Positions 2,846 to 44,485 of a stretch of 64,000 bases of DNA are shown in pieces. The notes beneath the pieces were generated by a model. That model had not been told where the DNA came from. It worked only from the letters and a program-made list of their open reading frames with translations, and ran no database searches. The first letter of the stretch is position 1. Each line of letters opens with the position of its first letter. The translations under genes were made by a program, and so were the position numbers. The DNA comes from Escherichia coli (GTDB lineage Bacteria > Pseudomonadota > Gammaproteobacteria > Enterobacterales > Enterobacteriaceae). The stretch lies in assembly GCF_030013205.1 (NCBI RefSeq), contig NZ_CP122648.1. The stretch is one strand, 5' to 3'.

Positions 2846-4739
<1,894 letters not shown>

Positions 4740-6879: not shown

Positions 6880-8124
6880 TTAATTACGCAGGGCGCTATT
6901 TGCCAGACGATCGTCTTCTGCCTGGCAAGCTGCCGCAGTGAATAGCACGTCAGTTGAAGAGTTCAGCGCGGTTTCGCAAGAGTCCTGCAATACGCCGATG
7001 ATAAAGCCGACGGCAACCACCTGCATGGCGATATCGTTCGAAATACCGAACATATTACAGGCCAGTGGGATCAGCAGCAGAGACCCCCCCGCCACGCCGG
7101 ATGCGCCACAGGCACACAGAGAAGCCACTACGCTCAACAGCAGCGCTGTGGGCAGATCGACCGGAATACCCAGCGTATTAACCGCAGCCAGCGTCAACAC
7201 GGTAATGGTGATTGCTGCGCCCGCCATATTGATGGTGGCTCCCAGCGGAATAGAAACGGAATAGGTATCGCGATCCAGATTCAGCTTTTCACACAGCGCC
7301 ATATTCACCGGAATGTTCGCTGCAGAGCTGCGGGTGAAGAAGGCATACACACCGCTTTCACGCAGGCACAGCAGCACCAGCGGGAACGGGTTACGACGAA
7401 TTTTCCACCACACCAGCAATGGGTTAACCACCAGCGCCACCAGTAACATACAGCCAACCAGCACGACCAGCAGTTGCGCGTAGCCCCACAGTGTGGAGAA
7501 ACCGGTGGTTGCCAGGGTAGAAGAAACCAGACCAAAAATACCGATCGGTGCGAAGCGAATGACCAGTTTCACCATAAAGGTGACGGCATTCGACATATCG
7601 TTGACCAGGTTTTTGGTGGTCTCGTTACCGTGACGCAGTGCGAAACCGAGGCCAATTGCCCACACCAGAATCCCGATGTAGTTACCTTTCAGCAGCGCGT
7701 CGATGGGGTTGGAAACCATGCTCATTACCAGCCCGCGCATCACTTCGACAATGCCTGACGGCGGCGAAATATCACCCGCGCTACTGGACAAGTGCAGGGT
7801 AGAAGGGAAGGCAAAACTGAAGACTACTGCGGCCAGAGCAGCAGAGAAGGTGCCCAGCAGATAGAGGAACAAAATAGGGCGGATATTGGTTTTCTGCCCG
7901 TGCTGGTGGTTAGCAATAGATGCCATCACCAGCATCAACACCAGGATGGGGGCAACGGCTTTCAGTGCGCCGACGAACAAAGTACCTAACAGACCAACAG
8001 CTTCCGCCGCGGGTTTTGAGATCCATGCCAGAAGAATCCCCAGAACAAGGCCGACCAGGATTTGTTTTACCAGGCTGCCATGAGCCAGACGCCGGAATAG
8101 CCCCGGTGAACGTTGCGTAGTCAT
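6880..8124 (-). CDS. sstT: Serine/threonine:Na+ symporter SstT
   Basis: 414-aa [37 protein letters not shown]..., DAACS-family transporter composition. Confidence 0.9.
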
Positions 8125-8739
8125 TTTTCGATCCTTTCATTGTGTTGTCGCACATCCCTGGTGCGTTCTGTCGACGCATCTTTCAGGATGTAACAAAGTG
8201 TTTGCAAGGTCGAGTATAAGGAAAGTTACAGCTTCGGGAAGCGAAAAATGCTGGATTTTAAAGAGAGGTCATATTTTGCAACTTAATGGTTACATTTATT
8301 TGACATAAACAGAGGGAAGGACTGGCAACTAAGGCTGATTAGATAACATATGGGCAAAACTATTTGGAATATGAGAACGGTTGCGCTCCTTTAATGTGCT
8401 ATGCCATATAAAGTCACTGGCGCAGGGAGCGCGCAGGGGGCGGCCAATCGCCGCCGCCCCCTGCACCCCCAGGCTCTGGCGAACAAAATCGCCGCTGCGC
8501 GGTTCCCTCAGCTTATCCCTTGCGGCTACCGGGTCGGGCGCAAGGGAACGTCCCTGTAAGATGCGCCCTCGCCGCGCATCCATGCGCGTCGCCCCGGCCT
8601 CCAGGGAACGCTTCGACGATTTTGACGCCACCAACACCCGTGCGGTCTTTTTGTAAAGAGCTATAAGCCGATTACATAATTAATAGCTCACCTTTGTCTG
8701 GAATGAGTTATCTCTAGTAATGGCTTAATATACAGCGAA

Positions 8740-9705
8740 TCATTCTCCCCGCTGCTTATCATGCTGATAATTCACCCAGGCGTTGATAATAAACGTCATC
8801 ACCAGAATGCCAAACACCACGCCCAGCGAGACGGCGATTGGAATATGGTAGAAGTCGACAATCAGCATCTTGATACCGATAAACACCAGAATTACCGCCA
8901 GGCCATATTTGAGCATCGAGAAACGTTCTGCTACGCCCGCCAGCAGGAAATACATCGCACGCAGGCCGAGGATTGCAAACAGGTTTGAGGTCAGCACAAT
9001 AAACGGGTCAGTGGTCACGGCGAAGATAGCCGGAATGCTATCCACGGCGAAAATCACGTCGCTCAATTCCACCAGAATCAGCACCAGCATCAGCGGCGTG
9101 GCATACAGCAAGCCATTCTTACGCACAAAGAAATGCTCGTTGTCGATGGTGTCGGTCATGCGCAAATGACCGCGCAGCCAGCGCATCAGCGGCTTGTCGC
9201 CAATGCCTGATTCATCTTCATGGGCCAGCGCCATCTTCACGCCGGTAAACAGCAGGAAGGCACCGAAGATATACAGGATCCAGTCGAACTGCGAAATCAG
9301 CCAACTGCCAGTGAAGATCATGATGGTACGCAGAACAATCGCTCCGAGTACGCCATACACCAGCACGCGCCGTTGTAACGCCGCCGGAACAGAGAAATAG
9401 CTGAACAACATCAGCCAGACAAAGACGTTATCGACCGCCAGCGATTTCTCAATCAGATAACCCGTGAGAAAGGCCAGTGCCTGTGGATCGGCAACGGCGC
9501 GACCTTCGGTTTGCACCAGATACCACCAGAAAGCGGCGTTAAACAGTAACGACAGCGTCACCCAGACCAGCGACCAGGCCGCAGCCTGTTTCATGGTCAT
9601 GGCATGTGCCCCACGACGCCCCTGCAACAACAGGTCGATAGCCAGCATAATGGCGACAACAACAGCGAATCCGCCCCATAGCAACGGCGTGCCGACAGTA
9701 TTCAT
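8740..9705 (-). CDS. alx: TerC-family inner membrane protein Alx
   Basis: 321-aa multi-[34 protein letters not shown]... Confidence 0.9.
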
Positions 9706-9900
9706 AGAAGTTCCTTACACATAAAAAAACGGCCAACGTCGGAAGACGTCAGCCGCTGCTTTTTATGCATAGACCTCGCCTTCCGGCAAGGTCTCACTTA
9801 CAACAAAAAAGGAATACGTCTGCGTATTCCTTTCGGGTTGCCCGGTGACCGGATGTGGTTTTTCACACATCGTAATGACGATCGACCGGCAATGAAGTTA
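9706..9900 (-). promoter_or_regulatory. alx 5' leader (pH-responsive RNA element / yybP-ykoY-type riboregulatory leader; sRNA SraF locus in E. coli)
   Basis: Long untranslated leader upstream of alx with several hairpins (e.g. GGAATACGCAGACGTATTCC, and GGCCAACGTCGGAAGACGTCAGCCGCTGCTTTTT); assignment from known biology of alx, motif not formally scored. Confidence 0.45.
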
Positions 9901-9987
9901 CTCCCCTTTGCAGGTAACAAAGTATGACAGACCATTCAGTCAGTCAATGGTCTGTTACATACCTTTTACACTGTTTTACTTTGGCAA

Positions 9988-15700: not shown

Positions 15701-15827
15701 TTATGTGGTCGGATGAGTTCTAATTTAGCTGTCGCCGGGGAAAAGGGAAAAGGGGAGTGCGGGGTTTGTGATGGGATTCAAAAAGAATACGCCCATTGGA
15801 AATGCCAGATACGACGCTTGTCGCGTT

Positions 15828-15864
<37 letters not shown>

Positions 15865-15865
15865 G

Positions 15866-15965
<100 letters not shown>

Positions 15966-15977
15966 ACTTCGACCATT

Positions 15978-17547
<1,570 letters not shown>

Positions 17548-44409: not shown

Positions 44410-44485
44410 TGGTGGCCCCTGCTGGACTTGAACCAGCGACCAAGCGATTATGAGTCGCCTGCTCTAACCACTGAGCTAAGGGGCC
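44410..44485 (-). tRNA. ileX: tRNA-Ile (anticodon CAU, lysidine-modified isoleucine tRNA)
   Basis: Reverse complement reads GGCCCCTTAGCTCAGTGGTTAGAGCAGGCGACTCATAATCGCTTGGTCGCTGGTTCAAGTCCAGCAGGGGCCACCA: 76 nt, CAT anticodon in loop, encoded CCA end; canonical position next to mug. Confidence 0.9.

Follow-up and report, generated by a model that had tools for sequence, protein, structure and literature searches.

Sequence comparison identifies the GC-rich block between alx and sstT of an Escherichia coli chromosome as TRIP1d, a copy of the TRIP1/Replication Risk Sequence family

Intergenic repeats of Escherichia coli named TRIP1 by Rudd (1999) have since been described as five types (Li et al. 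2024, PMC10888264), and the copies at lysO and dusC were independently named Replication Risk Sequences (RRS) by Pham, Cox, Goodman and colleagues, who equate RRS with Rudd's TRIP1. Recognised only recently as a class, RRS are signals encoded in the genome that bring about programmed, transient single-strand gaps. Chromosome supercoiling is affected by them, and the presence of at least one copy seems conditionally essential for K-12. In vitro, Pol I, II and IV are blocked by the RRS strand that contains the G-quadruplex (G4) motif, and M13 replication that depends on Pol III is reduced by it; when this strand is the lagging-strand template, it gives rise, at any chromosomal placement, to gaps reaching about 2 kb in length, which are loaded with RecA and SSB (PMC10287960, PMC10592627). 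At lysO and dusC in MG1655 the G4 strand is the lagging-strand template (PMC10592627), and gaps form at nearly every replisome encounter with an RRS in this native orientation (2026 preprint, bioRxiv 10.64898/2026.06.16.732529). Both native copies could not be deleted without compensating amplification (PMC10287960, PMC10592627), and RRS deletion or inversion shifts genome-wide supercoiling (PMC10287960, PMC10592627, bioRxiv 10.64898/2026.06.16.732529). An inverted RRS shows no RecA or SSB peak in vivo (PMC10592627), and a double deletion of the lysO and dusC RRS is rescued by an inverted RRS.

According to the published experiments on the family, an element on the lagging-strand template folds, once the duplex is unwound at the fork, into a very stable structure made up of a G-quadruplex-forming tract and GC-rich hairpins. 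The lagging-strand polymerase halts at this fold and restarts downstream. It leaves behind a single-strand gap (again up to about 2 kb) to which SSB and RecA bind, and a role as a topological swivel has been proposed for this gap. As the only other example the RRS authors cite the pilE G4 of Neisseria gonorrhoeae, which is likewise a G-quadruplex-forming intergenic sequence causing a replication-associated gap or nick. The pilE G4 shares no sequence relationship with the element described below. It is short and not a 264-bp folded repeat, it functions in antigenic variation, and it depends on an sRNA transcribed in cis.

The locus considered here lies in a 64,000-nt stretch of an E. coli chromosome (contig NZ_CP122648.1; the window, in whose numbering positions are given). 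An initial annotation had singled out a block of about 240 bp at 8400-8640, in the spacer between alx and sstT, for its very high G+C content and nested inverted repeats, and both features were borne out. In 100-nt windows the GC content is 0.66-0.70 across 8400-8650, compared with 0.35-0.45 in the flanks; the value for 8400-8639 (0.671) ranks at the 99.95th percentile among 240-nt windows from the entire 64 kb, and the maximum for windows of this size (0.683) starts at 8408. Eleven inverted-repeat pairs fall in 8300-8720, and the string quoted in that annotation, GGGGGCGGCCAATCGCCGCCGCCCCC (8436-8461), is part of a perfect 12-bp hairpin. The block lies between the alx stop and the sstT start, both genes being minus-strand ORFs. 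The element itself is slightly larger than first described (8380-8643; Table 1).

A profile of the paralogues searched with nhmmer matches 8380-8643 with an E value of 4e-81, and alignments to the paralogues run from 8380 to about 8645. The distance from the alx stop (codon end 8740) to 8643 is 96 nt, and 255 nt lie between 8380 and the sstT start (8124). For TRIP1d the published length is 264 bp, with 96 bp separating it from the alx stop upstream and 255 bp from the sstT start downstream (Li et al. 2024, Genes 15:236, PMC10888264). Since the length and both offsets agree exactly with that description, we identify the block from these comparisons as TRIP1d, the alx-sstT copy of the TRIP1 repeat family, alias RRS. 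The element is 87-91% identical to the copies at lysO-aqpZ, yohP-dusC and putP-efeU over 92-99% of the query, in agreement with the 89% published for TRIP1a, and its GC content (66%) is similar to the published 62-65% (PMC10888264). The locus, length and offsets are the same as for the TRIP1d of Li et al. (2024) and the strain frequency is similar, leaving no substantive difference between the two. TRIP1d at alx-sstT is thus a real element but not a new one: it has already been described at exactly this locus, and a mechanism is published for the family. Because it was catalogued in 2024, this copy adds nothing new to the RRS picture; to the account of Li et al. (2024) we add how it is oriented with respect to replication, and a covariation analysis.

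Table 1 Features of the alx-sstT spacer and its neighbours (window positions).
Feature	Positions	Strand	Basis
TRIP1d repeat element, 264 bp	8380-8643	- (G4 strand)	nhmmer profile of paralogues, paralogue alignments, published offsets
RRS G-quadruplex-forming motif GGGGGTGCAGGGGGCGGCGG	8451-8470	-	Exact match, 0 mismatches; 0 expected by chance
Perfect 12-bp G+C hairpin with 8-nt loop	8433-8464 (arms 8433-8444, 8453-8464)		Helix 11; 4 of 12 pairs with double compensatory changes; overlaps G4 motif
Long closing stem round multi-branched domain	8476-8633 (arms about 8476-8505, 8604-8633; core 8484-8499 with 8609-8624)		Inverted repeats, MFE folds, helices 2-3, 6 covarying pairs
Hairpin with loop AUGGAU on G4 strand	8570-8591	-	Loop identical in 31 of 32 copies; stem pair 62-71 A-U in 16, G-C in 16
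Hairpin with loop ACAGGGACG on G4 strand, GGA invariant	8536-8568	-	MFE folds; helices 8-9; pair 91-100 A-U in 17, G-C in 15
Terminal hairpin, GCGCTCC with GGAGCGC, variable A+T-rich loop	8383-8432		Helix 13
Polymorphic spacer segment, TRIP1d plus unique A+T-rich flanks	8312-8737		MG1655 alignment; K-12 has about 200 bp of unrelated sequence
sstT, downstream neighbour of TRIP1d	6880-8124	-	ORF and synteny with MG1655 sstT
alx, upstream neighbour, with TRIP1d in its 3' flank	8740-9705	-	ORF and synteny with MG1655 alx

The G4 motif of TRIP1d matches the RRS motif as published (PMC10592627) at every position, and its G4Hunter score of -1.84 is the third highest absolute value in the window. MG1655 has this motif at lysO in the plus strand and at dusC in the minus strand. 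RRS-lysO and RRS-dusC (TRIP1a and TRIP1c; Pham et al. 2023, 2024; Kusi-Appauh et al. 2026) share with TRIP1d homology over the whole length, an identical G4 motif, the hairpin architecture and extreme folding stability. Unlike them, TRIP1d carries its G4 in the template of the leading strand, does not flank Ter and occurs in a minority of strains only, and its sequence is about 10-13% diverged from theirs.

Other classes of dispersed enterobacterial repeat, namely REP/BIME and ERIC/IRU, resemble TRIP1d in being intergenic and GC-rich or palindromic, but do not match it in sequence. These searches used consensus sequences of REP and of the ERIC core. As the initial annotation had held, no REP match was found: the 34-nt consensus had no match in the element at up to 3 mismatches, and the 13-nt core occurred 0 times in 8380-8643 and 12 times elsewhere in the window, which served as a positive control. 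TRIP1d is also much longer than REP, has far fewer copies and adopts another fold. The comparison with ERIC that had been proposed at the outset likewise gave no match of the conserved core at up to 3 mismatches.

Several further identities were set aside. No Rfam family reached threshold over the element, and miRNA-type matches merely reflect its GC hairpin. Reading frames of 102 aa (minus strand) and 91 aa (plus strand) span the block, but we judged protein coding not credible because long ORFs arise by chance in GC-rich sequence, because paralogues carry 1-nt indels (alignment columns 94, 83, 108 and 119) and because substitutions covary as base pairs. Phage origin was rejected for want of phage matches, and plasmid origin since all 33 'plasmid' matches were to non-mobilizable records, among them chromosome-sized sequences and short partial matches. 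Alignments to MG1655 and to the paralogues revealed no transposon-like ends at the junctions, and a scan for promoter and terminator signals inside TRIP1d found none.

Both strands of TRIP1d are predicted to fold stably. Against dinucleotide shuffles, the RNA fold energy is -145.1 kcal/mol for the minus strand (z -5.0) and -127.1 kcal/mol for the plus strand (z -3.2); the corresponding DNA energies, again against shuffles, are -80.3 (z -5.4) and -74.2 kcal/mol (z -5.1). For comparison, 32 full-length copies, taken from Escherichia, Klebsiella, Pseudocitrobacter and related assemblies, were aligned with each read along its G4 strand. Their consensus fold comprises 75 pairs arranged in 13 helices: a long closing stem surrounds a branched two-hairpin domain, and after it come the 12-bp GC hairpin and then a terminal hairpin. 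In this alignment 98.8% of cells are paired. Double compensatory changes occur at 18 pairs, compared with 9.7 +/- 1.4 in shuffled alignments (0 of 500 reached 18) and at most 4 in slid-partner controls. Invariant core columns are about equally common at paired (63%) and unpaired (56%) positions, and the loop of the terminal hairpin is the least conserved part of the element (mean major-allele frequency of its columns, 0.70).

This covariation shows that compensatory evolution maintains the hairpins of the fold, the one overlapping the G4 tract among them. The AUGGAU hairpin carries two lineage-specific compensatory changes in TRIP1d itself, and these suggest that the fold stayed under selection in the TRIP1d lineage. 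Since the covariation supports hairpins of which one competes with the G4 tract, it is compatible with either structure blocking the polymerase. Strongly conserved loop sequences also speak against the G4-obstacle explanation in its simplest form, as a purely structural obstacle would leave them unexplained.

These loops invite a reading in which the element is a structured RNA, or part of one, made from the G4 strand in the alx 3' or sstT 5' region, with two GGA loops that bind a CsrA dimer as in the candidate sponge TwoAYGGAY; we consider it very unlikely that this accounts for the element. The minus strand matches Rfam TwoAYGGAY (RF01731) over the full model (1-168), with 30.6 bits and an E value of 0.03 in a 2.1-kb search, and the dusC copy of C600 scores 30.9 bits. 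The score of TRIP1d is sub-threshold, however (gathering cut-off 43), and Klebsiella copies had no TwoAYGGAY match at E <= 1. In both TwoAYGGAY and TRIP1d an outer stem surrounds two GGA-loop hairpins, one with a loop that is exactly AUGGAU, but the second loop of TRIP1d is CAGGGACG and not AYGGAY. Conservation of the loops AUGGAU and CA(N)GGAYG goes together with covariation in their stems. Both loops have an invariant GGA; AUGGAU is found in 31 of the 32 copies, and in CA(N)GGAYG the GGA alone is invariant. Both hairpin loops resemble the CsrA SELEX consensus, RUACARGGAUGU. TwoAYGGAY belongs to Rfam clan CL00106 together with CsrB and has been proposed as a CsrA binder (PMC4333381), but in a CsrA CLIP/integrated data set (Potts et al.) dusC and ybjE were negative or not significant. 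A literature search for dusC or yohP RNAs with ProQ or in RIL-seq found none.

Strand preference bears on the same question. The G4 strand is the better RNA folder in all 32 copies, and among 59 strand-neutral pairs there are 12 G-U and 2 A-C combinations. This bias is no proof of RNA because G-T wobbles are tolerated in DNA hairpins too; moreover, structures predicted for each strand on its own recruit their own G-U pairs (118 and 109), and the 12 versus 2 among strand-neutral pairs is too weak to decide the strand of function. In this chromosome, as at dusC in K-12, the upstream gene has the G4 strand as its sense strand. However, the element has no consistent orientation with respect to its neighbouring genes and differs in direction between strains at the same locus (also PMC10888264), no promoter or terminator signal frames it in our signal scan, and in the literature its function is ascribed to single-stranded DNA in the course of replication.

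The two activities could be combined, such that the DNA is a replication obstacle and the G4 strand is also transcribed (here in the alx 3' region) into an RNA that takes up the fold backed by covariation and has CsrA-binding GGA loops, which would make TRIP1 an enterobacterial relative of the orphan TwoAYGGAY motif. We give this dual function little credence. In a weaker form of this reading, selection would act on how the hairpins fold and on their loops and not on a G-quadruplex, in which case the published G4-centred mechanism would be incomplete.

To orient this copy relative to replication, we determined that the leading strand is the window's plus strand, as indicated by GC skew (+0.033), Chi sites (18 vs 8) and KOPS (3 vs 0), and this agrees with the position expected from K-12 synteny (about 3.24 Mb, left replichore). 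The G4 motif of TRIP1d consequently falls on the template of the leading strand, opposite to its placement in the two native RRS. A G4 on the lagging-strand template defines the native functional arrangement of RRS, not membership of the family. With the G4 on the minus strand and the plus strand leading, the lagging-strand template of TRIP1d is the weaker, C-rich strand, and a G4 strand on the leading template would be expected to have a weaker gap-triggering effect. We infer that TRIP1d is a reverse-oriented accessory RRS whose gap triggering in vivo is probably weaker or nil: its G4 motif and fold are intact, but gaps would likely be triggered more rarely, if at all, and the element would serve as a substrate for homologous recombination with other copies.

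Even this limited activity has points against it. An inverted RRS gives no RecA or SSB peak, so the copy may do nothing measurable; by K-12 synteny it sits a long way from the sites that are thought to matter, which flank Ter at about 650 kb from dif, the native RRS lying at 0.915 and 2.229 Mb; and it is missing from K-12 and most strains. Because about two thirds of strains are without it, TRIP1d must be dispensable. Taken as a whole, TRIP1d/RRS identity with a reverse-oriented accessory role is nonetheless the best explanation, and one in which we have high confidence. Natural TRIP1d strains, including those of BL21(DE3) type, carry a third full-length element with an intact G4 motif in reverse orientation, and TRIP1d could affect the outcome of RRS deletion experiments in such backgrounds.

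We searched 5426 complete E. coli genomes with 8390-8660 by megablast. TRIP1 copies were present in 5425 of them, at 1-5 places each (median 3), which bears out the suggestion that the block might be a repetitive extragenic element other than REP; paralogous sites are lysO-aqpZ, yohP-dusC and putP-efeU. A copy at least 90% identical, that is, the alx-sstT copy itself, is found in about 34% of these genomes, and Li et al. reported TRIP1d in 1565 of 6725 (23%; PMC10888264). In a set of swine ETEC/O139:H1 strains TRIP1d is 100% identical to that of the window and each genome has five TRIP1 places, a copy number reported for only 3 of 6725 genomes (Li et al., PMC10888264).

Homologues in Klebsiella are about 80% identical, with 13 places in one K. 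pneumoniae chromosome, and an exact-pattern scan of one genome per species added copies in E. albertii, Pseudocitrobacter, Kluyvera and another Enterobacteriaceae genome. A single-copy sequence lacking conservation outside close relatives would have counted against the initial annotation; TRIP1 is instead multi-copy, with homologues in Klebsiella, Pseudocitrobacter and Kluyvera. In K. pneumoniae strain 176 two full-length elements stand in tandem about 170 bp apart (1463-1726 and 1900-2163 of L010), and both Pseudocitrobacter genomes have a strongly diverged, inverted second copy about 80 bp away (1869-2132 and 2210-2428 of L023; 5321-5583 and 5662-5880 of L052). Strong profile matches (nhmmer E 1.5e-16 to 4e-84) also occurred on tiny or low-coverage contigs of unrelated taxa, namely a Bacillus sp. 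(L048; 583 bp, coverage 0.7), an Ensifer sp. (L059; 439 bp), a Desulfacinum MAG (L020) and a 'Proteobacteria' MAG (L022), those of L020 and L059 being partial; these are most likely enterobacterial assembly contamination.

Part of this distribution would suit a dispersed repeat that is selfish or a relic, either MITE-like or propagated by recombination, and that lacks a cellular function, its only effects being those of a recombination site and a sequencing obstacle. TRIP1d is polymorphic for presence and absence in both genome surveys, K-12 has unrelated sequence in its place and another repeat family in the same spacer, copy number ranges from 1-5 in E. coli to the 13 places of a K. pneumoniae chromosome, tandem and inverted neighbouring copies exist in other genera, and rearrangements between copies are documented (PMC10888264). 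Yet the element lacks terminal inverted repeats, a target-site duplication and an associated transposase, it has no phage matches, and its 'plasmid' matches are the non-mobilizable records described above. The consensus sequences of TRIP1 from Escherichia and Klebsiella are about 79% identical, which is unusually high for intergenic DNA between these genera and argues against a relic, as do the compensatory substitutions of TRIP1d's own in the AUGGAU hairpin and the phenotypes demonstrated for family members. On balance we think it unlikely that TRIP1d is a functionless repeat, while according that reading some weight.

The position of TRIP1d between the 3' end of a gene and the conserved sstT promoter region, and its very stable hairpins, could also suit a barrier that separates alx from sstT in transcription, as an insulator or in the manner of a terminator, or some other cis-regulatory element of sstT, and Li et al. 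(PMC10888264) speculate on effects on adjacent transporter genes. However, a terminator scan of the element found no match, with no hairpin followed by a T-run; sstT is expressed without TRIP1d in K-12 and most strains; and the same element occurs in unrelated contexts and in both orientations. Such a role seems to us highly improbable, and a reverse-oriented accessory RRS remains our preferred account of TRIP1d.

The orientation of TRIP1/RRS between the same genes varies among E. coli strains, both at yohP-dusC (2300-2900 of L002 vs 2320-2950 of L006) and at lysO-aqpZ (2800-3420 of L008 vs 2300-2870 of L004). In such pairs the gene-proximal flanks are 97-100% identical, whereas the element is only 89-91% identical and the adjacent 40-70 bp on each side are unmatched; the two orientations look like old allelic lineages and not recent inversions.

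The alx-sstT spacer itself also has at least two unrelated alleles, represented by 8312-8737 of the window and by 3047-3444 of the MG1655 locus (L001). It measures 615 bp in the window and 398 bp in K-12 MG1655, where TRIP1d is absent. In place of TRIP1d the K-12 allele has another GC-rich dispersed repeat, GGGAGAGGGTCGGGGTGAGGG ... CCCCTCACCCTAACCCTCTCCCC, which looks like box C. Full-length matches to the K-12 segment are present in 2582 genomes, with a median of 5 places per genome for the repeat that it contains.

Elsewhere in the window, the 5' leader of alx (9706-9987, minus strand), which is known as a yybP-ykoY Mn/pH riboswitch, had no Rfam match at the gathering threshold or at E <= 10, although the conserved GGGGAGUA is visible near 9905-9912. 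The highest G4Hunter scores of the window cluster at 15740-16720 on both strands, for example GGGGGCGGGTGGGCAGTGGCGGGGT at 16172 (score 2.24). The only Rfam match above threshold in the window is a tRNA gene at 44413-44485 on the minus strand.
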